From the IMG/VR virus record IMGVR_UViG_3300031873_001030: a stretch of 64,000 nt of DNA; one strand, 5' to 3'. A model generated the notes under the pieces. It did no database searches. It was not told the DNA's origin and worked only from the letters and a program-made list of their open reading frames with translations. Within the stretch, counting starts at the first letter, position 1. Each line of letters opens with the position of its first letter. This DNA comes from a virus. Lineage: Duplodnaviria; Heunggongvirae; Uroviricota; Caudoviricetes. Positions 1 through 43,328 of this stretch are shown here, in pieces. The position numbers and the translations under genes were made by a program.

Positions 1-84
1 GAAGAATTTGAAGACGGAGAATGGAGAGAATACTATAATGACGATAGTGAAGACATAATGGAGATGATAGATAATGGGAAATGA
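1..84 (+). CDS. 3' end of an upstream ORF running into the window (acidic tail ...EEFEDGEWREYYNDDSEDIMEMIDNGK*)
   Basis: Open frame from position 1 to TGA at 82-84; partial, no start in window. Confidence 0.2.
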   Translation, partial: EEFEDGEWREYYNDDSEDIMEMIDNGK

Positions 85-295
85 AGATGAATGGGATAAG
101 GTAAGGACAATATGTAAGGATTTGCTATACTTGGCTAAGATGAATGGATATGAGAAAGAATCCTTCTTTACATCTATGATTATACTGACAAACTTGAGGA
201 AGTCTTTGGATAGTGAAGATAATGTATGTATGCTTGAGGAAATGGAAAAGGAATTGAGGGAAGAGATACGTAGAAGGATAGGTGGATTTTCTTGA
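74..295 (+). CDS. hypothetical small protein (73 aa)
   Basis: ATG ORF from track; part of a run of co-oriented small ORFs; no recognisable motif. Confidence 0.3.
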   Translation: MGNEDEWDKVRTICKDLLYLAKMNGYEKESFFTSMIILTNLRKSLDSEDNVCMLEEMEKELREEIRRRIGGFS

Positions 296-371
296 GAGAG
301 GGATTTTGTAAAATAAAGAATGAGTATGCCTTCTGTTATTATTTTTCATTTGGACAGACTTATAATAGTCT

Positions 372-695
372 TTGTGGAAAGTTCAAGATAACTCCCACGA
401 AGAATGGATTTATAGTCAGAGAGAGGTGATACACGTATGTTTGAGGAAGAGGAAGAGATTGAAGAGAATGAGGAAGAAGAAGATGAAAAAGTGGAATGAC
501 AAGAAGTTAGTGAAAAATATAATGAAATACGAAGAAGGACTTATGGAAGACAAAGAAGTTGTGCTATTCTTTCAGTATCTTGTTGATATAGGAATGGCTT
601 GGACTTTACAAGGACACTATGGAAGGACTGCCCAATATCTTATTGACAGAGGATTTGTTGAAGACAAAAGAGGTAGGACGAATGTTGAACATTAA
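372..695 (+). CDS. hypothetical protein (107 aa, basic K/R-rich N-terminus)
   Basis: ORF track; ends 3 nt before palindrome copy 1. Confidence 0.3.
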   Translation: MWKVQDNSHEEWIYSQREVIHVCLRKRKRLKRMRKKKMKKWNDKKLVKNIMKYEEGLMEDKEVVLFFQYLVDIGMAWTLQGHYGRTAQYLIDRGFVEDKRGRTNVEH

Positions 696-697
696 AT

Positions 698-715
698 CAT
701 TAACATATGTTAATG
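698..715. repeat. 18-bp perfect palindrome CATTAACATATGTTAATG (core TTAACATATGTTAA), copy 1
   Basis: Exact palindrome read in sequence; intergenic between ORFs 372-695 and 739-975. Confidence 0.9.
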
Positions 716-738
716 TAAAAAATATGGGATTGGTGTGA

Positions 739-975
739 ATGTTTGACGAGAAATGGATAGCTCATTTGGAGAAGGAACACAACGAGAGATGTTCTGATAG
801 GGATTTGAGAAAGAAGAATAAGATATATGAAGTTTCTAAAAAGTATGCTAAGGATTGTATCAAGTGTCAATATATCTGTGAGAGAAGCAATAATTTTCAA
901 TCCACGTTGAAAGAGTTGAAGAGAATGGGTTGGAAGATATATTTTCCTAAAGTGAGACAAACCAGAGGAGATTGA
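739..975 (+). CDS. hypothetical small protein (78 aa, Cys-containing)
   Basis: ORF track. Confidence 0.3.
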   Translation: MFDEKWIAHLEKEHNERCSDRDLRKKNKIYEVSKKYAKDCIKCQYICERSNNFQSTLKELKRMGWKIYFPKVRQTRGD

Positions 976-985
976 AATCTTATGT

Positions 986-1003
986 CATTAACATATGTTA
1001 AAC
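986..1003. repeat. palindrome core TTAACATATGTTAA copy 2 (core at 988-1001)
   Basis: Exact 14-bp core read in sequence, intergenic. Confidence 0.9.
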
Positions 1004-1195
1004 ATTTTTTTTCTAGCGAACCAAACAGGAAGGTGTAGAATGAAAAAGAAAAAAACATATTGGATAATTGATTGGTGTAATGTGGAAAATTGTAAAGTAG
1101 CATATACATTAACAGAAGCAAGAAAATTTGCGAAAGAATTATATGAAGATAGTTCTCGCGTAATCATATTTCAATATATAGAAGAAAAGAGTTAG
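995..1195 (+). CDS. hypothetical small protein (66 aa)
   Basis: ORF track. Confidence 0.25.
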   Translation: MLNIFFLANQTGRCRMKKKKTYWIIDWCNVENCKVAYTLTEARKFAKELYEDSSRVIIFQYIEEKS

Positions 1196-1206
1196 AGGTG
1201 TAGAAA

Positions 1207-1578
1207 ATGGGAATGTATAGTTCTACTGATTGGTGTGAATTGAAAGTGAAAAGGGGAAAGGAAATAGAATTTTTTGATTGGCTTAAGAGGAATGAAGATT
1301 GGAAAGAAGCGATAGAAGTATTGAATGGCGAAGTAGAGATACAAGTCAGTTGGAAGATTATAAGTTATTGGTATGACAGCTTCCTTGACGAACTTGAACA
1401 GCTTGCTGAATATATTACAGGAAAATGGATATTGCTTTATGAGACAGGAGAAAGCAAAGCCATAATAACATTTACAGAAGATGACGAAGTGAAGATAGAA
1501 GTTGGGGAAATGGATTATCACAAAATTGATATAGATGATTTGAGAAAGGAAAATATGAAAATGGAAAGGAGTGATTAA
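1207..1578 (+). CDS. hypothetical protein (123 aa)
   Basis: ORF preceded by GAGGTG Shine-Dalgarno-like motif 7 nt upstream; stop codon TAA lies inside palindrome copy 3. Confidence 0.4.
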   Translation: MGMYSSTDWCELKVKRGKEIEFFDWLKRNEDWKEAIEVLNGEVEIQVSWKIISYWYDSFLDELEQLAEYITGKWILLYETGESKAIITFTEDDEVKIEVGEMDYHKIDIDDLRKENMKMERSD

Positions 1579-1626
1579 CATATGTTAAGAGAGTCGGCGG
1601 ACCCTGAGTTGCTTAACATATGTTAA
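1575..1626. repeat. pair of palindrome cores (1575-1588, 1613-1626) separated by a 24-nt GC-rich spacer GAGAGTCGGCGGACCCTGAGTTGC
   Basis: Read directly; spacer is near 60% GC in a genome near 33% GC. Confidence 0.9.
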
Positions 1627-1795
1627 GAAGCTTCATCCCGTTTCCATAGTAAATTTAAATACTATGGAAACTAATATTACATATGGTTAGATGGAAAAAA
1701 GATAGCCATATGATATTTGACAGCAACAATATCTATAATGATTTAGGTAATTGTTGGATTGACTTGAAAGCAAAGAAAAAAATGAGGTGATATGA

Positions 1796-1886
1796 AATGC
1801 CTGTTGGAAGACCTAAAGGTTATAGTCCTAAGAGAGATAATCAGAAGTGGAACTATTGCCCAAATTGTGGGAAGAAAGTAAATTGA
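1796..1886 (+). CDS. 29-aa zinc-ribbon micro-ORF (MPVGRPKGYSPKRDNQKWNYCPNCGKKVN)
   Basis: ATG with GAGGTGA 8 nt upstream; CxxC motif; below the 60-aa cutoff of the ORF track. Confidence 0.3.
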
Positions 1887-1905
1887 ACTAAAGAGGTAAT
1901 GAATT

Positions 1906-2094
1906 GTGAATTTGGAGAAGATTGTAAAGAAGATACAATTCCATAAAGAGATATTGATAAAGTTGAAGAATGATATGATTAAGAAGCATAGTCCTTTAGC
2001 TCCTGCGTATATAACTCATATACGTAGTTTGGAAGGTTTCTTGGCATATCTTGAAAAGGAGTTCAAAGCTATTGGAGAACAGAAAGAAGATTGA
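1906..2094 (+). CDS. hypothetical small protein (62 aa)
   Basis: ORF track. Confidence 0.25.
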   Translation: MNLEKIVKKIQFHKEILIKLKNDMIKKHSPLAPAYITHIRSLEGFLAYLEKEFKAIGEQKED

Positions 2095-2313
2095 TATGCT
2101 GAAAGGAAGTCTTTATAGATATTTCTTTTGTAAGGAAAAGAAAGAAAAAGAATATAGGTGTCCAAAATGCGATTGTATTTTGGAGATAGAGATAAAATGT
2201 GGACCCAAGTGATATTGATGAATAAATTACACGTAGATATATTTGGTATGGATATGGATTTTGTTAAATGTAATTCTATAAAAAATTCTCAGACAAGCGC
2301 TTCTGAAGACAAC

Positions 2314-2504
2314 TTAACATATGTTAAGAATTCAGCAGTACCTGCAGCAAGCAACTCATTAACATATGTTAAGTATCTCCATCGAATCATCCTTGGCAAA
2401 CGCCAGACCCAGGAACACAAGTCTTTAACATATGTTAATGTAATCATTGGCCGCATTGCCTCAAACAAGAAAGAAAATCCCAGTCGCCCATTAACATATG
2501 TTAA
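2314..2504. repeat. mini-array of 4 palindrome cores (2314-2327, 2359-2372, 2425-2438, 2491-2504) with unique spacers of 31, 52 and 52 nt
   Basis: Exact repeats read in sequence; spacers are GC-rich and unique; repeat-to-repeat distances 45/66/66 are all multiples of 3. Confidence 0.9.
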
Positions 2505-2641
2505 TAAGTTGGTGCCAGCAATTGCTTGGCAACCAACAGCATACAAAGTGATATTATGAATCATATTCCTTTCATATGAAGCAGATATGTGGAAAATATT
2601 TGATACAATAATAGAAGGGAGAAAAAATGAGTTAAAAAGAG

Positions 2642-2854
2642 ATGCGAATAATGAAAATATTTAATTACAACGTGAGCATAACAATAAAGAAAGATTATCC
2701 TAATTGTAAAGCTCCTATTCAAAAGAGATATAGAGAAAAAAAGAGGATGCGTGGTTTTTGTATAAATGGTGGATGTTGGAACAAAGTTGAAAATAACCGT
2801 TCCAAATGTCCAATCTGTATGGAAAAAGATAGGAAGAGATGGAAAGTGAGATAG
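2642..2854 (+). CDS. small Cys-rich zinc-finger protein (70 aa)
   Basis: CxxC...CxxC pattern (CKAP...CINGGC...CPIC). Confidence 0.35.
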   Translation: MRIMKIFNYNVSITIKKDYPNCKAPIQKRYREKKRMRGFCINGGCWNKVENNRSKCPICMEKDRKRWKVR

Positions 2855-2867
2855 TTAGTGATTATTT

Positions 2868-3089
2868 GTGGACATAATAATTTCAACATTGATAGCATTT
2901 GGCTCTTTGGTATTGGCGATATTTTTCATACTTATTGCGAGGTGGGACGCAAACAAAGTGATAGATAAGTTGTATAGAGAGGAATATAAAGAGAGAAATA
3001 GGATTGATGCGAATGTTGTCAAATCACTTGTAGGGAACTTGAAACAGAAAAGAGATGATGAAATATCTAGTTCGGAATATACAAAATGA
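2868..3089 (+). CDS. small membrane protein (73 aa, one N-terminal TM helix)
   Basis: Hydrophobic stretch IISTLIAFGSLVLAIFFILIA. Confidence 0.3.
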   Translation: MDIIISTLIAFGSLVLAIFFILIARWDANKVIDKLYREEYKERNRIDANVVKSLVGNLKQKRDDEISSSEYTK

Positions 3090-3440
3090 TTTTTAAGTAG
3101 CAACGTGTAATTATTAGATTAGTTAGATATAGAGGAGTGAAGGAAGTAACTAAAGAATCTCGTTTCTTTGGATATTTTCTTTAAGAATAAAGTATAATGG
3201 AGGTGGCAAATGTCATTCTACGAAAGATTGGAGAGGAGAGCAAAAGCACTTAATGATATAATGTGGGGTTCAGACGATGAGACTGAAAGTGAATAACTCT
3301 ACTATTAATACTTTAGCAATTAATTATACTATAGGGACTTTAGGAGTTCCTATGGTATAAAAAATCTAGGGGCTTTGTTCCTAGTTAGAAAGGGATATTC
3401 TTCCTTTCTAAAAATATGGTAAAAATAAGGTGATATATAA

Positions 3441-4010
3441 ATGAAGACAATAGAAGTAGAAATAAAAGGTCCTATTTTGCTGATGCATAATCCGAAGTCT
3501 ATGCTAGACCCACAGACTACTGGAACGAAATCATCAACTGCGAAATATGACTATAATGTCGAAGCAGAGAAGTCTGCTTACAAGACGAAAAAAAATGAAT
3601 TATATATTCCTGCCCAAGCTATGTTCAGTTCCACATTGAATGGAGCTTCTTTCAAGAAAGTAGGAAAATATACTGCCAAGAGCATTATAGCTGGCAATAT
3701 GAGAATAGAGCCAGAAGAAATCCTGATTCTAGATAGCAAAGGGAAAGTCATGACAAAATATGAGATAGACTTGAGGACTGTGGTTATTGCTCAAGGTAAG
3801 AAAAGAAACCGAATAGTCAGGGCAAGAGCTATGGTAAAGGATTGGAGTGCTAGATTCAGAATAGTCTATAACGACCAATTCATAGGCGACCCTGCTATAA
3901 TAGAAGATTGCTTGAAGGATGCAGGTTCAAGGATAGGTCTGTTGGAATACAGACCACAGACAAGTGGAAGCTACGGAACATTTGAGATAGTGAAATTCAA
4001 GGTGATATAA
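3441..4010 (+). CDS. hypothetical protein (189 aa), translationally coupled to the downstream ParB-like gene
   Basis: AAGGTGA Shine-Dalgarno-like motif 8 nt upstream; stop TAA overlaps the ATG of the next gene (TAAATG). Confidence 0.5.
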   Translation: MKTIEVEIKGPILLMHNPKSMLDPQTTGTKSSTAKYDYNVEAEKSAYKTKKNELYIPAQAMFSSTLNGASFKKVGKYTAKSIIAGNMRIEPEEILILDSKGKVMTKYEIDLRTVVIAQGKKRNRIVRARAMVKDWSARFRIVYNDQFIGDPAIIEDCLKDAGSRIGLLEYRPQTSGSYGTFEIVKFKVI

Positions 4011-4895
4011 ATGGCACTATGGGATAGGGAAGAAAGAAAGCATACGGAAAATAAAGTATTGCCACTCAAGGATATAGTATTTGATGAGAACATATATCCA
4101 AGACAAAGTTCATGGTGGCAAACTTCGTATAAATATGCCGAAGAGATGAAAGCAGGCGCAAGGTTTCCTCCAATCACAGTAGGTTTTGTGAATGGAAGAT
4201 ACGTGCTTGTGGATGGGAAGCATAGGAATGACGCACTTCTGATGAATAAGGAGACACATACATCAGTAGTAGTTCTCTATGGTTACACTTTGGATGAACT
4301 CTATATTGAAGCTGTAAAACTCAATAGGGCTCACGGTGTAGGACTTACTTCTTTCGACAAGGTCAAGATAATCAAGAGACTTGAAGATATGAAATATTCA
4401 TTGGGAGACATAGCCACGATAGTCCAGATTCCTTTGGGAAGCATAGAGAAATTTGTAGCACAGAGGATTACGTTAAATCCATTAGGACAAGTCACAGTAT
4501 TGAAATCTCCTCTCAAGTTTATGGCAGGAGGAACTATAACGATGACTGACGAAGAGCAAGATACTCTAAGTGTGAGGAGTGAGATAAGTCTGGTAAATCA
4601 GATGACACAGATATTCTCAAATCCGAAGATGCTAAGGGTTGATATAACATTCGTTGATGCTATCGAGAAGCTTTACCAACTGATTCAAGATTTCCTCAAA
4701 GAACAGAAAATTTTGAATGGAGCTGGAAATACAATAGAAGAAGTTCCAAAAGAGAAAATATACAAGAAAAGAGGAAGACCTAAGAAAATCAAGACTGAAA
4801 GTGAGACTTCAGAACCAAAGAAAAAGGGAAGACCTAAAGGTTCTAAGAACAAGCTTAAAGAACTTGATGTCAGTAACGTCAAAGAACAAGCATAA
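4011..4895 (+). CDS. ParB-like nuclease-domain protein with C-terminal AT-hook motifs
   Basis: N-terminal region with VDGKHRNDAL resembles the ParB/Srx catalytic motif; C-terminus carries two KRGRPKK/KKGRPKG AT-hooks. Confidence 0.55.
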   Translation: MALWDREERKHTENKVLPLKDIVFDENIYPRQSSWWQTSYKYAEEMKAGARFPPITVGFVNGRYVLVDGKHRNDALLMNKETHTSVVVLYGYTLDELYIEAVKLNRAHGVGLTSFDKVKIIKRLEDMKYSLGDIATIVQIPLGSIEKFVAQRITLNPLGQVTVLKSPLKFMAGGTITMTDEEQDTLSVRSEISLVNQMTQIFSNPKMLRVDITFVDAIEKLYQLIQDFLKEQKILNGAGNTIEEVPKEKIYKKRGRPKKIKTESETSEPKKKGRPKGSKNKLKELDVSNVKEQA

Positions 4896-4943
4896 ATAGT
4901 TAATCAGTTAGACTTTATTTGGAAAGAATGAAGCAGGGTTTAG

Positions 4944-5016
4944 TGACAACGAACCTCAGAGATAGAACTTACTGATTCTTAGAATCAGTTGGTTCTTACT
5001 GCGAGGTTCGTTGTCA
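4944..5016 (+). repeat. 73-nt stem-loop element family, copy A (14-bp terminal stem TGACAACGAACCTC / GAGGTTCGTTGTCA)
   Basis: Terminal inverted repeat with a compensatory substitution relative to copies B, C and D; begins 49 nt after the ParB-like stop. Confidence 0.6.
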
Positions 5017-5431
5017 TAGTTCCTTCCCTCTTCATACTTTCTTTAATATTAGGGAATTTATAAAAACTGTAGGTTTTTATTATGAGATAAGGTTCGGTTG
5101 GGTCAGTTGGGGTGGGTTCCGTTCCGATATGGTATGGTAAGATTATATTTATTGGACGTGGTAGGATAGGGTAGGATGCGATATGGTATTGTTACTTGTT
5201 CCGATATGGTTCGGTGATTTGGGGTTAGGTTAGGTCTGTTCCGATAGGGCAAGGTATGGTATTTTATTTATTCGATACGGTTCGGTTTGGTGGGTTTGGG
5301 TTAGGCAAGATAAGATAGGGTTAGACAAGGTATCTTACTTTTGTATCCGATTGGGTAAGGTCTGGTAGTATTCGGTCCGTTGTGGTTAGGCACGATATGG
5401 TGTGGTAAGGTTTGACATTTATAGTCAGTCA

Positions 5432-5491
5432 TTAACATATGATAAAGAGTTGGACCCAGTGCACGGGTGGCATTCCATTAACATATGTTAA
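5432..5491. repeat. variant palindrome (TTAACATATGATAA, 5432-5445) plus canonical core (5478-5491) with a 32-nt GC-rich spacer
   Basis: Read in sequence; sits at the edge of a satellite block. Confidence 0.85.
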
Positions 5492-5513
5492 TGAGAAAAG
5501 ATAAGAAATAATG
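5472..5513 (+). repeat. 42-bp direct repeat ATTCCATTAACATATGTTAATGAGAAAAGATAAGAAATAATG, copy 1 (copy 2 at 5817-5858)
   Basis: Two identical 42-mers flank the ORF 5526-5798; each is followed by a start codon. Confidence 0.85.
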
Positions 5514-5525
5514 TAAAATGATAAT

Positions 5526-5798
5526 ATGAAGAAGATAAAGGAAGAATTTTGCTTTCGCAGGAATGATACTAGAACTTCATATGATATGCAGAAAGGCTAT
5601 CTGATATATGGCAAGATTGATGACATTTATAATATCATCACTTACAATCTATTTGAGATGTGGAATACTACAAAGTGTTTTAAAAGGTTTAGGAAATTGT
5701 TCGTCACTACTTCAAATCACGAATGGATACATTATCTTGTTCCAGATATAAAAGATGGAAGTCTGATGAAGAAGATTGAAAATTGGTTTAACTGGTAA
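5526..5798 (+). CDS. hypothetical protein (90 aa) bracketed by 42-bp direct repeats
   Basis: ORF track; flanking direct repeats. Confidence 0.35.
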   Translation: MKKIKEEFCFRRNDTRTSYDMQKGYLIYGKIDDIYNIITYNLFEMWNTTKCFKRFRKLFVTTSNHEWIHYLVPDIKDGSLMKKIENWFNW

Positions 5799-5816
5799 AA
5801 TGTATCGTTAACCAAA

Positions 5817-5858
5817 ATTCCATTAACATATGTTAATGAGAAAAGATAAGAAATAATG
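5817..5858 (+). repeat. 42-bp direct repeat copy 2 (contains palindrome core 5823-5836)
   Basis: Identical to 5472-5513. Confidence 0.85.
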
Positions 5859-6150
5859 AAAATCAAAAAGAGGTAAAAAAAATGAGATACTATTGCCGAG
5901 AACATAAGGAAAGTTTTGAGACTACTGTCTGCTTTCTTCAACATGTTCTTAAGGAACACCATAGCATATTTGACATCACAAGTGAATAGATATTTATGTG
6001 ATGAGGTGGGGTCAAGTCAGGTCGGTTCTGGTTGCGATACTGACCTTATCACACCAAACCTCACCTTACCAGGGTTCGATAAGTTGTGATTTGGTAGGAT
6101 AGGGTAAAGTTATTTATATTTGAAACACGTAATTATATGTCAAGGAAGTC

Positions 6151-6223
6151 TGACAACAAACCTCAGAGTTGGAACTTTCTGGTTCTAAAAAATCACTTAG
6201 TTCTTTCTGCGAGGTTTGTTGTC
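6151..6223 (+). repeat. 73-nt stem-loop element, copy B (stem TGACAACAAACCTC / GAGGTTTGTTGTC)
   Basis: Embedded in the satellite; stem co-varies with copies A and D. Confidence 0.6.
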
Positions 6224-6948
6224 TTTGTATCGACTTTATCATTCGGTCAGGTAAGGCGGGTTCAGGTGGGGTATAGTTTCGGTTCGGTATGGTAGTTTGA
6301 CATTTATACGATACGGTAAGGTGAGGTTTGGAAGATAGTCTTTATGATTCGGTAAGGTGGGGTCAGTTGCGATTGTGTGAGGTTTGATTTGGTTTGGTCT
6401 GATTTGGTAGTTTGAGGCAAGGTAAAGTTAATTCCTTTTATATGATAAGGTATGGTCTAATTCGGTCTGGTTTGGTTGGATGGGCTACGTTCCGATAAGG
6501 TTCGGTATGGTAATATGACACTTATACGATTAGGTTCGGTCAGGTAAGGTTGGGTCAAATGCGATTAGGTAAGATGAGGTTCGGTCAGATACGGCAAGAT
6601 ATGGTATAATATTTATTCGGTTAGGTGAGGTCAGTTTAGGTCTGGTCTGATGTAGTTTGGCATGGTAGTATAACACTTATCGGTTTGGTTCGGTATGATG
6701 CGATATGGTCAGATTCGGTTTGATATGGTAGTATGACACTTATTGGTCAGGTTTAGTAGAATATGGTAAGGTTCGGTTCGATACGGTGGGATATGGTCAG
6801 TTAGGATTTGGAAAAGGAGAGAATAGTTTCAAGAAAGAATCAGCCCTTGGGTGAGTCCCTTGAAATGAAAAATGCCGCACCAGAGATGGTGATATTAGGT
6901 AAACTAATATAAATCAAGGTTCGAACCGTCCGTTAGGCAACGGTTCTC

Positions 6949-7020
6949 TGACAACAAACCTCAGAGTTAGAACTTACTGGTTCTTGAAATCAGTTGGTTC
7001 TTTCTGCGAGGTTTGTTGTC
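6949..7020 (+). repeat. 73-nt stem-loop element, copy C
   Basis: Embedded in the satellite; loop AGAGTTAGAACTTACTGGTTCTTGAAATCAGTTGGTTCTTTCTGC. Confidence 0.6.
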
Positions 7021-7963
7021 TTCCTCCAAAAAATTACTTATTCGATAGGGTAAGGATAGGTATGCTATGTCAGGGTCAGGTTTGGTTAGGTTTGATATGG
7101 TATGGTAAGGTAATTTAATACTTTTGCTTTGGTGCAATATGGTAATATTCGGTAGGGTATAATTCGGTGGGTTCCGTTAAGGTATGGTAAGGATTATATT
7201 TATGAAATACGTATATAGGAATAGAGATGATGAAAGGGAACTTAAATTTGAAGTTCCAGATAGTATGTCAATAGCTGAAGCATTTGAATTTGCAGAAAGG
7301 AAATGCGCCAGCATGGAGTGATTATAATTTTTGGTCTGGTAGGGTGCGATTAGGTACGATTGGGTTTGGTCAGATAGGATATGATATGGACTATTGTAAT
7401 TTTCGGTTAGGTGCGGTTAGGTCTGGTTTGGTGCGTTCGAGGTGTGGTCAGATAGGATATGGAACTTTCATTCGTACTTTTCGGTAGGGCATTATTCGGT
7501 CCGATATGGTCTGGTCAATTCCGCTCTGGTTCGGTTAGATAGTGTATGGTGATATATGTTAAGTCGTGGTTTGGTTCGGTCTGGTAGAATGAGGTTTATC
7601 TTTTTTGATAGGCTATCGTTCGGTCTGGTGAGGTATGGTTCGGTAGGGTTCGGCAAGGTTTAATCCTTTTAGGAAAGGGTCTTTGATTCATTCCCTTTCT
7701 ATAAAAGATTTATCCCACGTCTTCGGGATTTATCCCTTCTTTCAGAAGGGATTTATATATCACCGAATCTCGTTTTAAACGAGATTCACAAAGAACTTGT
7801 GGTCGGGTCTGATACGGCAAGGTGTGATACGGTAAGATAAGATTGGGTTATGGTCTGGCAAGGAACTTTTTACTTATATGGTTTGGCACGGTCCATTCCG
7901 TTGCGTTTAGGTGTGGTAAGGCTTGGTATGGTTACGATTTATTTGGCGTAACATATGTAATAC

Positions 7964-8632
7964 GTGTATTTAAGGTTTCTTATGTATAGTTATGCTATGG
8001 CAAAAGATGAGAATAGGGAAATAAACGTCAGTGGAAAGACAATTGCCTTAATCCTTATGGTAATCATTACAATATTTTCAGTAGGCAGTCTGATAGTAGC
8101 CATAAATGATAAAGGTCAAGCTTCCTCAGATTCAACTAGCTGGCAGAACAAATATACAACTTGCAGTTCTGGATTAAGCTCTTGCAACTCTCAACTAAGC
8201 TCTTCTCAATCAAGCTCCTCTTCATGCGCTTCACAACTCAATACTTGCAATAGCAACCTTGATTATTATCAGAACACAGGAGGAACTTGCAGTTCAGATT
8301 TGAGCAATTGCAATGCCAATTATAATACCTGCAATGCCAATCTTAACAATTATAAGACACTTTATTCTAATTGCGGTGGCAGTCTGACTAACTATCAGAC
8401 ACTTTATTCTAACTGCCAGTCAAGCTATTCTACTTGTAATTCTAATTTCAATACTCTGACTTCCACTTACAATTCTCTGAAGTCAAATTCTGATGTCATG
8501 GCACAGAATTATGCCAGTATGAAATGCTGTCCAAGCTGGCCATCCACCAAATACAGCTATTACTATACAAGCAATGGAAATGTCTATTGCACTGATACAG
8601 CAACAGCAAGCACAAAACTTACAGGATGCTAA
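7964..8632 (+). CDS. secreted/anchored Ser/Cys/Asn-rich repeat protein (222 aa) with N-terminal TM anchor
   Basis: TM helix IALILMVIITIFSVGSLIVAI; periodic TCNSNL/NCNANY/TCNANL/NCGGSL/NCQSSY/TCNSNF units with a Cys every 10-11 residues. Confidence 0.45.
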   Translation: MYLRFLMYSYAMAKDENREINVSGKTIALILMVIITIFSVGSLIVAINDKGQASSDSTSWQNKYTTCSSGLSSCNSQLSSSQSSSSSCASQLNTCNSNLDYYQNTGGTCSSDLSNCNANYNTCNANLNNYKTLYSNCGGSLTNYQTLYSNCQSSYSTCNSNFNTLTSTYNSLKSNSDVMAQNYASMKCCPSWPSTKYSYYYTSNGNVYCTDTATASTKLTGC

Positions 8633-10649: not shown

Positions 10650-11186
10650 GTGACATCCAAAAAAACACTCAGGCTATTCGAGAGGGGCAATGTGATTCAT
10701 CAATTCATATCAAAAGTCCTATTGAGTTCGGAAGCAGTAAGGGAAGTAAAAAGTGAACAGTCACTAAGGATACCAAGGATATCTGACAACCCTAAGGAAA
10801 ATTTTCTAATCACAGGCAGATTTGATAACTTTATTGAATTAGTAGAAGGGGAAAATGTGCTGATTGAAGTGAAGACGACAAGAAATCTGGATTATCAGAA
10901 ATCAGCTTCATTGCATCATATCATGCAACTGACACCATATCTTTTATACAAGCAAGGTCTGAAAGGTGCCATATTGTATATAGACATGAACTTCCAGACA
11001 AAAGTATTTGAAGTGATTTATGACCCTAAATTGATGCTGGAAATAATGAAAAGGGCAGAAAATTTGCATATGTATTTAGTGGAAGACAAAATGCCGCTAC
11101 CAGAAGCCAAAGACATACCAGAAAAAAATTGGGAATGCAAATACATATGCAATTATAAAGAGGAATGTGATAAATGTGTTACCTAA
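10650..11186 (+). CDS. PD-(D/E)xK nuclease, Cas4/RecB-like, with C-terminal Cys cluster
   Basis: GRFDNF...IEVK (D...ExK) followed by QxxxY-like LYKQ; C-terminal CKYICNYKEECDKC cluster as in Fe-S Cas4-type nucleases. Confidence 0.4.
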   Translation: MTSKKTLRLFERGNVIHQFISKVLLSSEAVREVKSEQSLRIPRISDNPKENFLITGRFDNFIELVEGENVLIEVKTTRNLDYQKSASLHHIMQLTPYLLYKQGLKGAILYIDMNFQTKVFEVIYDPKLMLEIMKRAENLHMYLVEDKMPLPEAKDIPEKNWECKYICNYKEECDKCVT

Positions 11187-12039: not shown

Positions 12040-12374
12040 GAAAAAAATTCAATTATGAAAACTATTACAAGAAATATTATGAAAGTCATAAGGATAAGCA
12101 CTTGTATTATGTCAATGAATGGAAGAAGAAGCATAAAGATAGTGTAAGAATTTATTCCAAACGTTATTCCAAAAGTTGGAGATTGAGAAACAAAGAAAGA
12201 TTGAAGAAAACTTCAAAAAGATATTATGACAGGCATATCAGAAGTTCTTGGTTCGATAGGATATTTGGTTTCAAATGCAAAGTATGCGGCAAGAGATATA
12301 AAGATAAAAAGGCTTTGGGTGGGCATACCACATATTGTAAAAGAAAAAGGATTGAACTTATTAACATATGTTAA
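12018..12374 (+). CDS. basic K/R/Y-rich protein with C-terminal C2H2-like zinc finger
   Basis: CKVCGKRYKDKKALGGH motif; N-terminal composition similar to the HNH protein N-terminus. Confidence 0.4.
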   Translation: MDKGKKMRKKFNYENYYKKYYESHKDKHLYYVNEWKKKHKDSVRIYSKRYSKSWRLRNKERLKKTSKRYYDRHIRSSWFDRIFGFKCKVCGKRYKDKKALGGHTTYCKRKRIELINIC

Positions 12375-12411
12375 AAAGATTGCATGCAGATAACTTCTTA
12401 ACATATGTTAA
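12361..12411. repeat. pair of palindrome cores (12361-12374, 12398-12411) with a 23-nt spacer
   Basis: Read in sequence; overlap the stop of 12018-12374 and the annotated ATG of 12405. Confidence 0.9.
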
Positions 12412-16499: not shown

Positions 16500-16770
16500 T
16501 AAACCACAGATTACCAGACCATACCCGAACCTATAAGACCACATCACACCTGAGCGAAAAGTGTTAACCATACCACATCAGACTTTATCATGCCTTACCA
16601 GTCCTTAACATATCGTAACTTACCACAACGTAGCATAAATGACAATCCATATCTTACCACACACCAACATATCTTACCAAAACCCACCCTAACCCATCTA
16701 ACCCAATCATAAATATAATCCCTATCTTACCAAATCCCATCACAACGGACCCTACCAAATCAGACCCCGT
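16500..16770 (-). repeat. inverted copy of the (GGTNN)n satellite (reads ACC-rich on +), including the CATAAATGACAA and CATAAATATAATCC punctuation units
   Basis: Reverse complement matches the unit structure of the 5091-7925 array; contains degenerate palindrome TTAACATATCGTAA at 16605-16618. Confidence 0.8.
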
Positions 16771-16868
16771 TAAATAATTATAAGTTTCCCTTTAAAGAAA
16801 CATGGAAGAGGACTTGTTCCTCTTCCCAACCAAATAATACCTTCTTGCCCTCTAAGTCAGTTACTTCT

Positions 16869-17171
16869 TTATCGAATAAAAACGTCGAAAGCTTTTGCCT
16901 TTCGTCCGCTTTTAGTTGAAACTAGACCCTTGAAGACAATTTTCAGTTCCTGACCAATTTTCACTGAACCCATCTGTCTCTCTAAAATCATAGAACCAAA
17001 GACAGTTCTGACTTTTCCAGTGTTGTCTTTGATGTCGTAGACTCTGGACTTACTTCCATCTGGCCTGAAGTAATTTCCATCTCGAATTTGCATGAGAGTT
17101 CCTTCCAGTGAGTCGTCTTCATTTTCGAATCTGAATATTTCTCCACTTGTAGATTGCCAATTTCCTGGCAT
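16869..17171 (-). CDS. hypothetical protein (100 aa)
   Basis: ORF track. Confidence 0.35.
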   Translation of the reverse strand: MPGNWQSTSGEIFRFENEDDSLEGTLMQIRDGNYFRPDGSKSRVYDIKDNTGKVRTVFGSMILERQMGSVKIGQELKIVFKGLVSTKSGRKAKAFDVFIR

Positions 17172-17742: not shown

Positions 17743-18933
17743 ATGACGTTGAAGAATCTTGTAACGCCATTGGAACTTAAGACTCTCTGGGATTCTGAAT
17801 ATTACAAATCAATATTGACAGCTACAGCTAGCAGCTGCCAATTTGGAAGGATAAGAGAACACCAACGTAATAATACATTCAAAGAAATCAGAGCCAATCT
17901 GAATGCTCTGATAGTTGGAGAATATGGAATTGGGAAATCCACAATGTTGGACATTAAGAATGTCCCAATAGTCAGGGCTAATACAGTTTCAGTTGCTGGA
18001 CTAGCTGGAACTACGACAAGAAGTGGGGAACACGTTATTGGAGCTGCATATAAAGCTAATAATAAATTACTAATTATAGATGACGTTGGTAGTGGTGAAA
18101 ATTCTTATATAGATAATTCTGTAAAACGATGCATGAATCTGCTATTGGAACCTCCGCATACTTTTTCACGAATGTTAGGATTTAAGATGAACATTCCTGT
18201 GAAAGAGAAGAAGGGTGGAGCTTGGGTGAAAGGAAGTGAGAATCAGTTTACATTGCGTTCTAAGTTCAGTTGCATCGTAGCTACAACATCAGTTGTAATT
18301 CGAAATACTGATGACAAAGCTTGGATGTCAAGATTCGTACCAGTAAAACTACATGGTAGTGTGGATTACATGTTTGAATTTTTATCTGGTTCTAATCCAT
18401 TTACAATTACTGGTTTGAATCGGAAAGTCAAGTTATTTGAATTTCCAGATTATCTGGAATTCTTGGAATTCTATGAAGAACATTTTCGTGGAAGTCTGTG
18501 GGAGAAAAGCATAATAGAAAAGGAAGATGAAGTCGGTTCTATAGCGAGAAATACTGGTGACTTGGTAAGATTGGCTGCTTTCAATTGCGCTGTCGATGAT
18601 AGAATAAATATAGAATTTGAAGATGCCAAGAAAGTTTTTGATAGGTTCTACAATCAGATATGGTTCAATATCCAAGTTGGACCACTGACTCATGAACAAT
18701 ATAGAGTTCTATTACTTCTCAATAAGAAGTTGACTGAAGATGAGATAGCAGAAACTATACAAAGGTCACAGCCTTACGTATCTAAGATGATAGAGAAATT
18801 TGAAAGTAAGGGAATACTTGTAGACAGAAAAGTTGCGAAAGAAGTTGAAAACTTTAAACAAACTTCATGGGAAAAACTCGAACCACAGCAGACTTTATCA
18901 GAATCTGTAAAGTTAGATGGTAGTCATGAGTGA
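17743..18933 (+). CDS. mini-MCM-like AAA+ helicase core with C-terminal winged helix (no N-terminal OB/zinc domain)
   Basis: Walker A LIVGEYGIGKST; MCM-like GLAGTTTRSGEH...LLIIDDVGSGEN block; arginine-finger-like SRFVPVKL; C-terminal wH LTEDEIAETIQRSQPYVSKMIEKFESKGIL. Confidence 0.5.
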   Translation: MTLKNLVTPLELKTLWDSEYYKSILTATASSCQFGRIREHQRNNTFKEIRANLNALIVGEYGIGKSTMLDIKNVPIVRANTVSVAGLAGTTTRSGEHVIGAAYKANNKLLIIDDVGSGENSYIDNSVKRCMNLLLEPPHTFSRMLGFKMNIPVKEKKGGAWVKGSENQFTLRSKFSCIVATTSVVIRNTDDKAWMSRFVPVKLHGSVDYMFEFLSGSNPFTITGLNRKVKLFEFPDYLEFLEFYEEHFRGSLWEKSIIEKEDEVGSIARNTGDLVRLAAFNCAVDDRINIEFEDAKKVFDRFYNQIWFNIQVGPLTHEQYRVLLLLNKKLTEDEIAETIQRSQPYVSKMIEKFESKGILVDRKVAKEVENFKQTSWEKLEPQQTLSESVKLDGSHE

Positions 18934-21728: not shown

Positions 21729-22961
21729 TTGGAGATGAAAGTGATGAACATAGGTGAAGTTGAAATTGGAAAACCTTGGCAATATAAGGAAAATTCTATT
21801 GGAATTGTTGTTCCACTTTTAAGGAAGAATCAAGTCAAAAGAAATTATAAGACAGTTGAGGAAGTTAAGGAGATGATGAATATCAAGGATACTGGAAATA
21901 TAGACAGTGTTGAAATTTCCTCAAAAGTCAATGAACCAGTTTTTATCAGGAGCGGGACGATGTTTGAAGGGGTTGGAACTCAGAGCAGGACGCCAACAAC
22001 TAGCATTGTCATAATTCCAAATCAACAGCCTATGAAAGTTCCTGTAAAATGCATACATGCTTCTCATCACATATCTTCTGGAAGCAACTTTAAAGTCGCA
22101 GGTAGTATTCCCCACTATATTGGTTATGCAGCTTTTGGACCAAGGGCTAGTCAATCTCGTGTGTGGTCTTCTGTAAGCATGCAAGCAAGTTCTGTAAGCC
22201 ATCATGCTATGCATCTTTCTGACAATCTTATCGATAACGTAAGAAAAATAGAAACTTTTAAGAAAGATATTGGCGAAGCAGTTAAAAACTATCCGATATT
22301 GAAAAATCAAGTTGGTATAGTTGTTCTTGATTTTAACGGGGTTGTTGGTCTTGAGATGTTTGATAATTCTGAATCTTGGGCAGCAGTATGTAAAGACATA
22401 ATCAATAAGTATTCTGACACAATAACACAGCTTGTTGACAGTCCTTTATTTTCATTGAATGAAGAAAGCATAAAACCAAAGATATTGGAATTCTTGAAGA
22501 AGCTGACAGAAGCAAAAGAAGAGATTATCTTTCAAGCAGATGTGATGAAAACAATCTTATTGGAAAATGGAGATATCATTGGAGAATGTACGAGTATTGA
22601 TGGCAGGATGATACATCTCATGGGAATGAAAAAGAAGGATGAGGAAAGGACATATGGTTCAGTTGCTCCAAATAATTTACCATTTACACCACAAAATTGG
22701 ACAACCAGAGGTTCTAACTATTCTGTGCTATCTGCACTTGGAGATGGAAGTAGGAGATTTTCAGAAATAGAGAAAACAACTAAATTATCCCCAGCTACAG
22801 TAAGCAAAAATTTAAGCAAGTTCCATTCTCTTGGATTTATTGACAAGTCAGCAGAAATAATAAACAACAAGGCCCGTGAAGTTTATAGCCTTACAAGCAA
22901 CGGTAAAAATGCATTTTTTACTATGCATGATGTCAGGAAGAAATTGATGAAGCTTGGATAA
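21729..22961 (+). CDS. putative transcriptional regulator (410 aa) with C-terminal winged helix-turn-helix
   Basis: C-terminal RRFSEIEKTTKLSPATVSKNLSKFHSLGFIDK resembles ArsR/MarR-type wHTH; N-terminal domain unrecognised. Confidence 0.4.
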   Translation: MEMKVMNIGEVEIGKPWQYKENSIGIVVPLLRKNQVKRNYKTVEEVKEMMNIKDTGNIDSVEISSKVNEPVFIRSGTMFEGVGTQSRTPTTSIVIIPNQQPMKVPVKCIHASHHISSGSNFKVAGSIPHYIGYAAFGPRASQSRVWSSVSMQASSVSHHAMHLSDNLIDNVRKIETFKKDIGEAVKNYPILKNQVGIVVLDFNGVVGLEMFDNSESWAAVCKDIINKYSDTITQLVDSPLFSLNEESIKPKILEFLKKLTEAKEEIIFQADVMKTILLENGDIIGECTSIDGRMIHLMGMKKKDEERTYGSVAPNNLPFTPQNWTTRGSNYSVLSALGDGSRRFSEIEKTTKLSPATVSKNLSKFHSLGFIDKSAEIINNKAREVYSLTSNGKNAFFTMHDVRKKLMKLG

Positions 22962-24054: not shown

Positions 24055-24100
24055 TGCGTGTGACAGGATTTGAACCTGTAAGGCACTAAGCAACGGATAT
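24054..24100 (-). other. tRNA 3'-half-like fragment (T-arm ACAGGTTCAAATCCTGT + CACACGCA) without a matching 5' acceptor strand
   Basis: Perfect T-stem-loop on the minus strand but no complementary 5' strand within 300 nt; possible att-site remnant or split tRNA. Confidence 0.3.
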
Positions 24101-24415
24101 CCAAGTCCTAATCGTTTAAGTTTACTCTTGGTTTGAGCCTTTGAGTTTGGGCCTCTAAGTCCGCCTATCTTTTAAATAATTATATATGCTGTAATATATA
24201 TTATGAAAAAGCGAAAACTAATTTAACTGTTGAAATTAAAGTTATTGGATATGTCTTACTGTAAAGCATGCAGAATATGCCTTCCTTTCTTAATTCATCA
24301 TGCAATTTTATAATTAAGAAGGTTATAATGTTGACTTTGATACTCTTCTTTCCAGCACAAGCTCATATCTTTTTAATACCTTCCTTATTGCAGCAATGAT
24401 ACTTATCTTTTTCTC

Positions 24416-24479
24416 TTAACATATGTTAATCAGTGATGCAGCATAATGCAAAATTCCTTCAGTCTTTAACATATGTTAA
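24416..24479. repeat. pair of palindrome cores (24416-24429, 24466-24479) with a 36-nt spacer
   Basis: Read in sequence; intergenic between the tRNA fragment and tRNA-Pro. Confidence 0.9.
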
Positions 24480-24601
24480 TGTCAAATTAGAAATGCAATA
24501 CGATTGTTAACAAGAAAGTTAACAAAGTCTCACCTGCCAGAATTGCACCAGCATCTACGAGGCTACAGCTCGTTGTTCTACTGTTGAACTAAGGCGAGTT
24601 G

Positions 24602-42583: not shown

Positions 42584-43328
42584 TTTGGTACAATTCAATT
42601 GTTCTATTTGGAAAACCAAAAGAATTTGATGTGTTTACTTCTTCATCATTTTGAGGTTCGATGAAAATTCTACCTTTGTCTGTAGTGTTGAATATTATTA
42701 TTGCATGCCCTATTGTGTAATTTTTCCATTCAATATATACTAAGCCAATACTGATGTGTTGTTTAAGAGAATTTAATATGATGTCTCGACTAAAGTCCCA
42801 ACAATTATAAGTTTCATTATATGTGTTTTCATTTGTCTTATCAGTAGCTATGAAATTTTTCATATCATTATATGTTGGGTCTTGAGAATTTTCATAGAAA
42901 AGGTAGTCATTTAAATTCCACGTATTACGATAGAATGTTGTCAAGTTAGTTGTGTTAAAGACTGATATATTTGTTATGTTCAATACTGTCAAATTAGTTG
43001 TGTTAAAGACTGATATATTTGTTATGTTCAATACTGTCAAATTAGTTGTGTTAAAGACTGATATATTTGTTATGTTCAATGTTGTCAATTCTGTTATGTT
43101 CGTTACGTTTAATACTGTGATATTAGTTATGTTAAGAATTTTGATGTTTGATATCGAACTGTTGACTAAATTTATCTTATCGTCTAAAAGAGTTTTTACA
43201 CTGCTTAGTTCATTTTGTGTGGAAGTTAGACTTTTTTGTATTTCAGATGTTTTTTGAATCTGAAAAATTATTGTAATCAAGGTTGCAATAAAAATTGTGG
43301 AAAAGACGAAGATTGTCTTTGAATCCAT
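42573..43328 (-). CDS. secreted sequon-repeat protein with transglutaminase-like (Cys-His-Asp) core
   Basis: N-terminal TM; 16-aa tandem repeats ITNISVFNTTNLTVLN; C-terminal YNCWDFSRD...GHAIIIFNT...EPQNDE fits a papain/transglutaminase-like triad. Confidence 0.4.
   Translation of the reverse strand: MDSKTIFVFSTIFIATLITIIFQIQKTSEIQKSLTSTQNELSSVKTLLDDKINLVNSSISNIKILNITNITVLNVTNITELTTLNITNISVFNTTNLTVLNITNISVFNTTNLTVLNITNISVFNTTNLTTFYRNTWNLNDYLFYENSQDPTYNDMKNFIATDKTNENTYNETYNCWDFSRDIILNSLKQHISIGLVYIEWKNYTIGHAIIIFNTTDKGRIFIEPQNDEEVNTSNSFGFPNRTIELYQIIW
42939..43100. repeat. 48-bp DNA tandem repeat (about 3 copies; perfect copies 42961-43008 and 43009-43056) inside CDS 42573-43328
   Basis: Unit ACTGATATATTTGTTATGTTCAATACTGTCAAATTAGTTGTGTTAAAG read twice exactly plus partial copies. 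Confidence 0.9.

Follow-up and report, generated by a model that had tools for sequence, protein, structure and literature searches.

Short, near-identical DNA sites that recur many times in one replicon are known from several systems. In mycobacteriophage L5 and Cluster A, the gp71 repressor binds stoperators, dozens of near-identical 13-14 bp sites placed in short intergenic gaps between genes of the same strand, and related phage lineages carry variant sites. The Streptomyces phage phiC31 has the CIRs, palindromes of ~17 bp that are repeated in the intergenic regions of the early genes and are bound by the phage repressor, while RK2 carries 12 dispersed OB palindromes and phage N15 four dispersed SopB sites. 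The PeSLs of T4-type phages combine a directional promoter with a stem-loop within ~40-50 nt and flank small orphan ORFs in the hyperplastic region, and the polycistronic mRNAs of phage T7 contain RNase III sites between cistrons. CRISPR arrays consist of repeats of ~23-50 nt and similarly sized spacers with adjacent cas genes, REP/BIME elements are built from imperfect hairpin units of 20-40 nt, and MITEs have terminal repeats and a conserved interior.

We investigated a palindrome array within a 64,000-nt stretch of viral DNA, the whole of which is referred to here as the window, and which belongs to a source contig of 92 kb (relatives are of 66 and 106 kb). Nearly all genes of the window lie on the + strand, with a strong positive GC skew, and they encode a short XPF whose best solved relative is the Aeropyrum XPF (E = 7e-33), an AAA+ protein that has a winged helix at its C-terminus, a DUF285 protein of 3752 aa, five tRNAs and numerous methyl- and glycosyltransferases; in relatives, genes for an Hjc resolvase and an ATP-dependent DNA ligase are also present. 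The element looks like an archaeal extrachromosomal element or virus of an uncharacterised family. It is similar in GC, size and strand bias to the mini-Borgs of Methanoperedens (bioRxiv 10.1101/2023.08.02.551345), a likeness that we take as a lead only. Comparison of window positions 1-8000 with phage records gave zero similarity matches.

The array at 2314-2504 contains four exact copies of TTAACATATGTTAA, a 14-nt perfect palindrome. A repeat scan returned start-to-start spacings of 45, 66 and 66 nt, all multiples of 3, and thereby reproduced the coordinates and spacing reported by an earlier, sequence-only reading of the locus. The array and the sequence just 5' of it contain the following features, the palindrome copies being without strand:

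2226-2285, + strand: AT-rich stretch 5' of the array, inside the N-terminal part of the + strand ORF that runs through the array
2226-2237: TACACGTAGATA box, present in a relative (L025) as well, in the intergenic DNA of the syntenic place
2274-2285: TATA-like TCTATAAAAAAT, within the AT-rich stretch upstream of the array
2314-2327: palindrome copy 1 (TTAACATATGTTAA), exact
2328-2358: array spacer, 31 nt
2359-2372: palindrome copy 2 (TTAACATATGTTAA), exact
2373-2424: array spacer, 52 nt
2425-2438: palindrome copy 3 (TTAACATATGTTAA), exact
2439-2490: array spacer, 52 nt
2491-2504: palindrome copy 4 (TTAACATATGTTAA), exact

The spacers are GC-rich, as had been claimed, with 46-50% GC compared to ~35% for the window, and on the + strand they have more C than G, whereas the + strand genes of the window have more G than C. 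The two 52-nt spacers are mutually unrelated in sequence, so their equal lengths are not explained by recent duplication. Common motifs in the spacers, or matches to them elsewhere in the window, were found at chance level only, a comparison with phages and plasmids gave no meaningful matches, and three 20-22-mers searched in IMG/VR gave zero matches. For the 62-aa gene just 5' of the array, the homologue search returned only itself.

The palindrome is not confined to the array, which had been regarded as an isolated oddity: TTAACATATGTTAA is present in 14 exact copies in the window, and 16 sites are found with at most 2 mismatches, compared to 0.91 expected from shuffles. The question raised by the array is thereby less whether it codes for a protein than which protein reads the site. 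Eleven of the copies are located within the first 6 kb, among small + strand genes. Outside the array, all 10 exact copies are located in the gaps between ORFs or share with an ORF no more than its stop or start codon, either solo or paired 37-50 nt apart with unrelated spacers, and from a copy downstream to the next start codon the distance is typically 25-45 nt (starts 739, 1040, 5526, 5882 and 12447). These sites, again without strand, and two genes that bear on their interpretation are:

700-713: solo copy, between the gene end at 695 and the gene start at 739
988-1001: solo copy, between the gene end at 975 and ATG 1040, which has a Shine-Dalgarno-like site
1575-1626: pair 1575 + 1613 (spacer 24 nt, 67% GC); ORF 1207-1578 has its stop codon in the first copy
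4011-4895, + strand: ParB/KorB-like protein, ParB N domain and HTH
5432-5491: pair of a hybrid half-site TTAACATATGATAA (5432, one mismatch) and a canonical copy at 5478, 34 nt before ATG 5526
5823-5836: solo copy, 45 nt before ATG 5882, with a 22-nt downstream module in common with 5478
10650-11186: Cas4-like PD-(D/E)XK nuclease, 8 kb from the array
12361-12411: pair 12361 + 12398; the first copy forms the stop of the ORF ending at 12374
16474: further core AACATATGTT
16605-16618: degenerate copy with 2 mismatches, inside an ACC-periodic tract
24416-24479: pair 24416 + 24466, between the end of a + strand gene and the 3' end of a - strand tRNA cluster

The copy at 12398 is 35 nt upstream of a likely methyltransferase start (12447), and the pair 24416/24466 has zero + strand genes downstream. 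Inspection of the flanks over 27 exact sites revealed a weak and symmetric preference, TYA on the left and TRA on the right, with T at position -3 in 17 sites on the left and 14 on the right, C or T at -2 in 20 and 23, and A at -1 in 13 and 15, respectively. Single sites are often not self-complementary at these positions, which fits recognition of each half-site rather than base pairing. Intrinsic terminators, like sigma-70 promoters, are not enriched around the sites, a consistent TATA box was not found 5' of the copies, and Rfam searches at gathering and E-value thresholds identified tRNAs only. The restriction-related idea that CATATG is avoided in the window was rejected, as 37 occurrences were observed against ~44 expected.

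Comparison with the described systems places the palindrome closest to dispersed protein-binding sites. It resembles the L5/Cluster A stoperators in its dispersed, intergenic and near-identical sites with lineage variants, but stoperators are asymmetric and oriented with transcription, whereas TTAACATATGTTAA is a perfect palindrome in an archaeal-looking element. The phiC31 CIRs are, like TTAACATATGTTAA, repeated intergenic palindromes, although their sequence and host domain differ and a cognate repressor gene is not recognised here. The OB sites of RK2 KorB and the ParB-parS systems (also the N15 SopB sites and F sopC) share the format of dispersed perfect palindromes of 13-16 bp, about a dozen in number and often near gene starts, and a ParB-fold protein, with KorB as best match, is encoded in the middle of the cluster; unlike in ParB-parS, however, site and protein do not co-occur across the relatives and the recognition helix does not track the site. 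PeSL is comparable as a short, near-identical intergenic module beside many small orphan ORFs of a hyperplastic region, around which the gene content varies between relatives, but the palindrome is a symmetric site of 14-20 bp and at most a putative site of recombination. Identical repeats that part unrelated spacers of similar size (52 and 52 nt) are also a feature of CRISPR arrays and viral mini-arrays; a CRISPR array was nevertheless rejected given the 14-nt repeat, the uneven spacers (22-111 nt), the solo copies and the lack of cas genes, a leader, and Rfam or protospacer matches. REP/BIME and MITE were rejected as well, since the interiors have no common sequence, the unit is a 14-nt perfect palindrome and solo copies are common. 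The exact 14-mer was not found in the literature, and its 10-mer core led only to the LexA box. The Bacillus-type LexA (Cheo) box CGAACATATGTTCG (PMC8270828) has the same central 10 bases, AACATATGTT, but was rejected as an SOS box because its defining GAAC-N4-GTTC half-sites are TAAC-N4-GTTA in the palindrome. LexA was not seen in the element, and the gene content is archaeal-type (Aeropyrum-like XPF).

Relatives were obtained from metagenome contigs by a pattern scan and by protein-guided retrieval, and four of them were informative. The source contig and its relatives come from the samples SRR9651338, JGI Ga0172363/Ga0172364 and Ga0315281. The exact 14-mer is kept in L021, L025 and L018, where the copies are also concentrated at gene boundaries, while positions, copy numbers and spacers turn over. 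L021 (~75% nucleotide identity) has two copies at a spacing of 64 nt (spacer 50 nt, 54% GC) immediately 5' of the homologue of the window gene 2868-3089, a second pair 125 nt apart, and a copy at 166 that is 25-45 nt before the next start. L025 (~77% identity), the closest syntenic relative, matches the gene order of the window from the gene at 1906 through the ParB-like gene; it is without palindromes upstream of the ParB-like gene, with an unrelated ORF of 89-92 aa in the array slot, and has four copies downstream of that gene, with spacings of 36 and 82. In the more distant L018, copies are found in five gaps between genes; three copies form a cluster (spacing 95 and 45), and those at 1825, 4651 and 5495 are solo. 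L041 and L042, whose 189-aa protein is 75% identical to that of the window, carry the symmetric variant TTATCATATGATAA, which differs from TTAACATATGTTAA by a symmetric swap at positions 4 and 11, at ~31 sites with at most 1 mismatch in 20.6 kb. Both lineages also contain hybrid sites (TTAAC..GATAA and TTATC..GTTAA), at 5432 in the window, at 3618 in L018 and seven times in L041. A six-site array in L041 and the three-site cluster in L018 occupy corresponding positions, each upstream of a syntenic block that consists of a gene plus a DNA ligase. In IMG/VR, the 189-aa protein has distant relatives (L002-L012, 31-35% identity, high GC), which are uninformative, as they lack recurrent palindromes.

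A search with the palindrome-pair pattern gave zero matches in IMG/VR, and most of the metagenome and genome matches to the pair come from unrelated organisms (CPR bacteria, one Pacearchaeota contig, simple repeats). In unrelated bacterial contigs, small HTH genes of excisionase type that precede Fic/Doc genes have pairs of the 14-mer directly upstream; a position directly upstream of an HTH gene is the classic place of an autoregulatory operator. A homologue of that HTH (HTH_17-type) was not found in the window.

With moderate confidence, we propose that the array is a non-coding cluster of element-wide sites for a dimeric, sequence-specific DNA-binding protein, predicted from the sequence to be regulatory. 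The symmetric half-site flanks, the symmetric change between lineages and the tolerated hybrids point to a dimeric protein that reads two half-sites on DNA, and the operator-like pairs upstream of HTH-Fic genes in unrelated contigs may support an operator by analogy only. The site would be a symmetric sequence of ~20 bp, TYA-TTAACATATGTTAA-TRA, with its two half-sites read by the dimer; the bound protein would act as operator or roadblock and co-regulate small early/accessory genes at gene boundaries, and clusters of 2-6 sites would form high-occupancy nodes. We infer both the protein binding and its regulatory outcome. The array is best read as non-coding, with the + and - strand ORFs as a by-product of the palindrome's reading frames; they would arise from the one stop-free frame that the palindrome has per strand and from spacings that here happen by chance to be multiples of 3. 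The operator model does not explain the 46-67% GC of the spacers of several pairs, and the pair 24416/24466, with no + strand gene downstream, counts against it. The spacings of 36-82 bp show no helical phasing, and cooperative binding is not evident. Among candidates for the cognate regulator, none co-varies with the site, and the small early proteins have no DNA-binding Pfam matches. Candidate readers besides the ParB-like protein are winged-helix proteins (17743-18933 and 21729-22961) and small Zn-ribbon proteins.

An adjacent candidate for a reader is the ParB/KorB-like protein, the only one nearby whose fold binds palindromes, in which case the sites would be parS- or KorB-operator-like and serve as centromere and/or global repressor sites, an explanation we consider unlikely. 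On its AF2 model (pLDDT 71), the product of 4011-4895 is a genuine ParB-fold protein, with KorB (8qa9), Noc (7ol9), ParB (7bnk) and the ParB N domain of pNOB8 (5k5d) as the best Foldseek matches (E-values of 2e-7 to 1e-5, over the N domain and HTH), a weak PHROG ParB match, and Pfam ParB_N matches in its homologues. A multi-copy perfect palindrome of 14-16 bp within a few kb of the gene is, in addition, the usual format of parS and OB sites. However, orthologues of the pair formed by the 189-aa protein and the ParB-like protein in L026, L028, L039, L043 and L045 are encoded in 5-20 kb of sequence that has no recurrent palindrome. Despite an identical site, moreover, the predicted recognition helix varies (GSIEK in the window, ENITQ in L021, ETISN in L025), with the helix of L025 being closer to that of the site-less L026 (ESISN). 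What accompanies the gene pair instead is a GGTNN-periodic tract just downstream (L021, L025, L026, L039-L046), scored in the relatives whose contigs extend past the pair. ParA was not seen next to the ParB-like gene, and a Walker A motif is absent by eye from the upstream 189-aa partner (phrog_4652). The ParB-like protein is thus an unlikely reader of the palindrome.

It is doubtful whether the palindrome acts at the level of RNA, where neighbouring copies would form stems of 14-18 bp around the spacer, or solo copies weak hairpins, and would control processing, stability or translation between cistrons. The sites are located between cistrons of same-strand genes, as this would demand, and the lineage variant keeps its self-complementarity through the double change at positions 4 and 11. 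When folded, either strand of the array also gives two long hairpins (-53.9 and -70.7 kcal/mol, with z of -4.4 and -4.2), but such low z-scores are a trivial consequence of repeated palindromes. Solo copies, which alone form only a 5-bp AU-rich stem, are common (700, 988 and 5823 in the window, and the three in L018), hybrids that break the pairing are frequent (7 of ~31 sites in L041), the flank preferences apply to each half-site and are often non-complementary within a site, and Rfam gave zero matches to the sites.

A minor possibility is that the palindrome is a core promoter element that drives each small gene, for example an unusual TATA/BRE-like box with symmetry, or a promoter used by a polymerase specific to the element. 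The distance of 25-45 nt to the next start at 700, 988, 5478, 5823, 12398 and L021 166 is consistent with this, there is often no space for another promoter between the preceding stop and the site, and sigma-70-type promoters are not enriched. On the other hand, core and flanks are perfectly symmetric while nearly all genes run one way, and both the four tandem copies and the pair 24416/24466 are without a gene to drive. To our knowledge, TTAACATATGTTAA is also unlike the known archaeal TATA boxes, which counts against a promoter, and separate TATA-like and ACACGTA boxes are present upstream of several genes.

That the strictly conserved palindromes are more than operators and bound exchangeable units (gene cassettes or short, foreign GC-rich inserts), or, in a lesser version, that a regulatory array of sites is also translated into a young orphan protein, we regard as quite improbable. 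The former would mean, if true, that this family of archaeal extrachromosomal elements has a system of recombination or guide type built on a 14-bp palindrome with variants specific to each lineage.

The sequence-only reading had offered two options for the frame-keeping of the array, either a non-coding array with in-frame spacing by chance, which is favoured by the off-frame spacings in relatives and by a + strand ORF without homologue, or a protein with LTYV repeats whose gene doubles as an array of sites. The reading frames concerned are:

2158-2559, + strand: ORF through the array, beginning with GTG 2158, first ATG at 2167; a gene-caller gene in the public assembly; predicted tryptic peptides include, e.g., NSAVPAASNSLTYVK and YLHR
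2289-2564, - strand: mirror ORF, open across the array

Both ORFs translate every palindrome copy as LTYV(K/N). Their coordinates were recovered; the + strand ORF starts with GTG and has an ATG only from 2167, and the Shine-Dalgarno-like AGGTG is present (2156-2160), 6 nt before that ATG. Only frame 1 of the palindrome is stop-free, since frames 2 and 3 contain TAA, and by symmetry the same is true on the opposite strand. With a single stop-free frame per strand and in-frame spacing, both strands are therefore open at once, and because of the palindrome symmetry the two ORFs represent one coincidence, not two. The chance of the frame-keeping had been put at roughly 1 in 9, but three independent spacings give 1/27. 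When spacers were shuffled with the in-frame spacing kept, the frame was open on the + strand in 12.8%, on the - strand in 9.5% and on both in 2.3% of trials, and the joint chance of in-frame spacing (1/27) and an open + strand frame (0.13) is ~0.5%, which is low even allowing for post-hoc selection.

The spacings in the relatives fit a non-coding array. Spacings that are not multiples of 3, which the sequence-only reading had named as the sign of such an array, are found at related loci in L021 (64 and 125 nt), L025 (82 nt) and L018 (95 nt), and the six-site array of L041 (149, 135, 44, 55 and 48 nt) does not keep the frame. Spacings between neighbours in the TTAAC lineage are 38, 45, 66, 66, 46, 37, 50, 64, 125, 95, 45, 36 and 82, of which 5 of 13 are divisible by 3 (11 of 24 with L041 added); outside the array, 2 of 10 are, no more than chance would give.

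We consider it very improbable that 2167-2559 encodes a genuine protein in which LTYV(K/N) is repeated four times, and whose gene serves as a site array at the same time. The AGGTG 6 nt ahead of ATG 2167, the ~0.5% joint chance and the prediction by a gene caller speak for it, and variant sites are found in frame inside plausible ORFs of L041, where an ORF of 138 aa contains LSDDK three times and the C-terminal tail of the ParB-like protein contains LSSDK and LSYDK, so sites embedded in coding sequence do occur in the family. However, a search among 1.84 billion representative proteins returned only the + strand ORF itself, in a singleton cluster, it has zero Pfam matches, and it is absent from L021 and from the syntenic slot of L025, which holds an unrelated ORF and zero palindromes. 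The Markov coding score is -11.9 bits per 100 nt for the array part and -6.7 for the whole ORF, compared to +9.1 +/- 3.6 for real genes (5th percentile +3.5) and -22 +/- 5 off-frame, with the model being weak for the small genes of this element, some plausible ones of which score below the + strand ORF. The spacers also have a GC skew of opposite sign to + strand genes, and the N-terminal part of the ORF overlaps a Zn-ribbon-like small ORF (2096-2212) and holds two regulatory-looking boxes, the TACACGTAGATA box, which is intergenic in L025, and the TATA-like box. Translation of the + strand ORF is accordingly judged very unlikely, and a functional, conserved LTYV-repeat protein less likely still.

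Finally, that the copies mark the boundaries of cassettes or of recombination, or make up a guide-array-like structure (a CRISPR-like mini-array with foreign GC-rich spacers), is hardly credible: gene content differs between the window, L021 and L025 exactly around the copies, the spacers are unrelated, two of them equal (52 nt) and with GC above that of the element, and a Cas4-like nuclease is encoded at 10650-11186, but the repeat is only 14 nt long with spacers of 22-111 nt, cas genes and CRISPR repeat families were not found, the spacers are unmatched in the window, phages, plasmids and IMG/VR, and many copies are solo.

The array would be a dispersed-binding-site architecture of a known type, in a poorly known type of element, and what it reveals is not a dual-coding palindrome gene. 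For annotation, palindromes with a single stop-free frame yield spurious ORFs on both strands that gene callers accept. As a dispersed operator, the palindrome would be the principal cis-regulatory word in an uncharacterised family of archaeal-type extrachromosomal elements that are low in GC and coded on one strand. The 14-bp site, invariant within a lineage and switched symmetrically between lineages, could define 'immunity groups', and its lineage specificity may offer a route to the cognate regulator by co-variation. The site could also be used to map the set of co-regulated early/accessory genes in elements that are unculturable.

Pairs of the identical 14-nt palindrome, with copies 39-56 nt apart, were found in unrelated contigs, including candidate-phyla-radiation (CPR) bacterial genomes.

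L014, 6858-6927: 14-mer pair
L017, 5442-5494: 14-mer pair
L024, 1293-1345: 14-mer pair
L034-L038: further 14-mer pairs

In L014 and in L017/L024 a small excisionase-type HTH gene lies immediately 3' of the pair, followed in L017/L024 by a Fic/Doc gene, and this arrangement of a pair upstream of an HTH gene looks like a toxin-antitoxin operator that shares the sequence by chance. In the sister lineage of contigs L041 (Ga0315281_10000317, 1-20594) and L042, the symmetric variant of the palindrome is TTATCATATGATAA, with ~31 sites in the 20.6 kb of L041. A further variant of this lineage, TTATCAGATGATAA, is confined to called ORFs, where its frame reads LSDD(K/N); an AT-hook protein of 138 aa (L041 8771-9187) has the peptide three times, and LSSDK and LSYDK occur in the C-terminal tail of the lineage's ParB-like protein. 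In this lineage, sites that lie within coding sequence may be genuine.

A second box recurs between genes, near gene starts, as (A/T)ATACACGTA or, reverse-complemented, as TACGTGTAT.

Window, 430, 2226-2237, 6123-6131, 7207 and 7958-7968: second box
Relative L025, 3423-3437, 3830, 3912 and 7360: second box

The box is kept in L025 at the syntenic spot 3' of the homologue of the 1906 gene, and it may be a promoter or the site of a second regulator.

Adjoining the tRNA cluster, window 24057-24170 (- strand) contains a GGTTCAAATCC motif that resembles a tRNA T-arm; no tRNA was called in this segment by ARAGORN or Rfam. It may represent part of a tRNA, a tRNA that is split or contains an intron, or the remnant of an attachment site. 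Two GTTAACAA direct repeats, 12 nt apart and with a TTAACA half-site within, lie at 24506-24525, shortly 3' of the palindrome at 24466 and adjoining the 3' end of tRNA-Tyr. Elsewhere in the window, a near-perfect 48-nt tandem repeat (42939-43088; 3.1 copies, 97% matches) recalls the perfect tandem repeats known from Borg and mini-Borg elements, and a giant ORF of 3752 aa (49389-60647) with many DUF285 repeats (Pfam E = 3e-138) contains tandem repeats of 75/150 nt at 51805-52903.

Two further kinds of element were observed.

Window, 4945-5015, 6152-6225 and 6951-7020: hairpin element of ~72 nt
Window, 5080-5420, 6230-6800, 7040-7200, 7330-7660 and 7800-7950: (GGTNN)n tracts
Window, 16500-17000: (GGTNN)n tract, reverse orientation
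Relatives, L039 11400-14700, L026 3998-4235 and L025 6660-7340: (GGTNN)n tracts

The hairpin, for which 28 pairs are predicted, has no Rfam family, and one compensatory change (G-C to A-U) is found among its copies. Compared with L025, which has the empty site GGGTTGT|TGTTCC, the copy at 4945-5015 is inserted, and the element therefore acts like a small mobile hairpin or ncRNA.

The (GGTNN)n repeats are degenerate pentanucleotides that form long tracts without ORFs, and we know of no described equivalent. Nearly all GGT-to-GGT distances are 5, 10, 15 or 20 nt. 'GACAYTTATAC'-like boxes interrupt the tracts, whose orientation is that of transcription. In the relatives whose contig extends past the 189-aa/ParB-like gene pair (L021, L025, L026 and L039-L046) a tract is found 3' of the pair, reaching up to ~3 kb in L039, and the tract may be the actual partner of the ParB-like protein.
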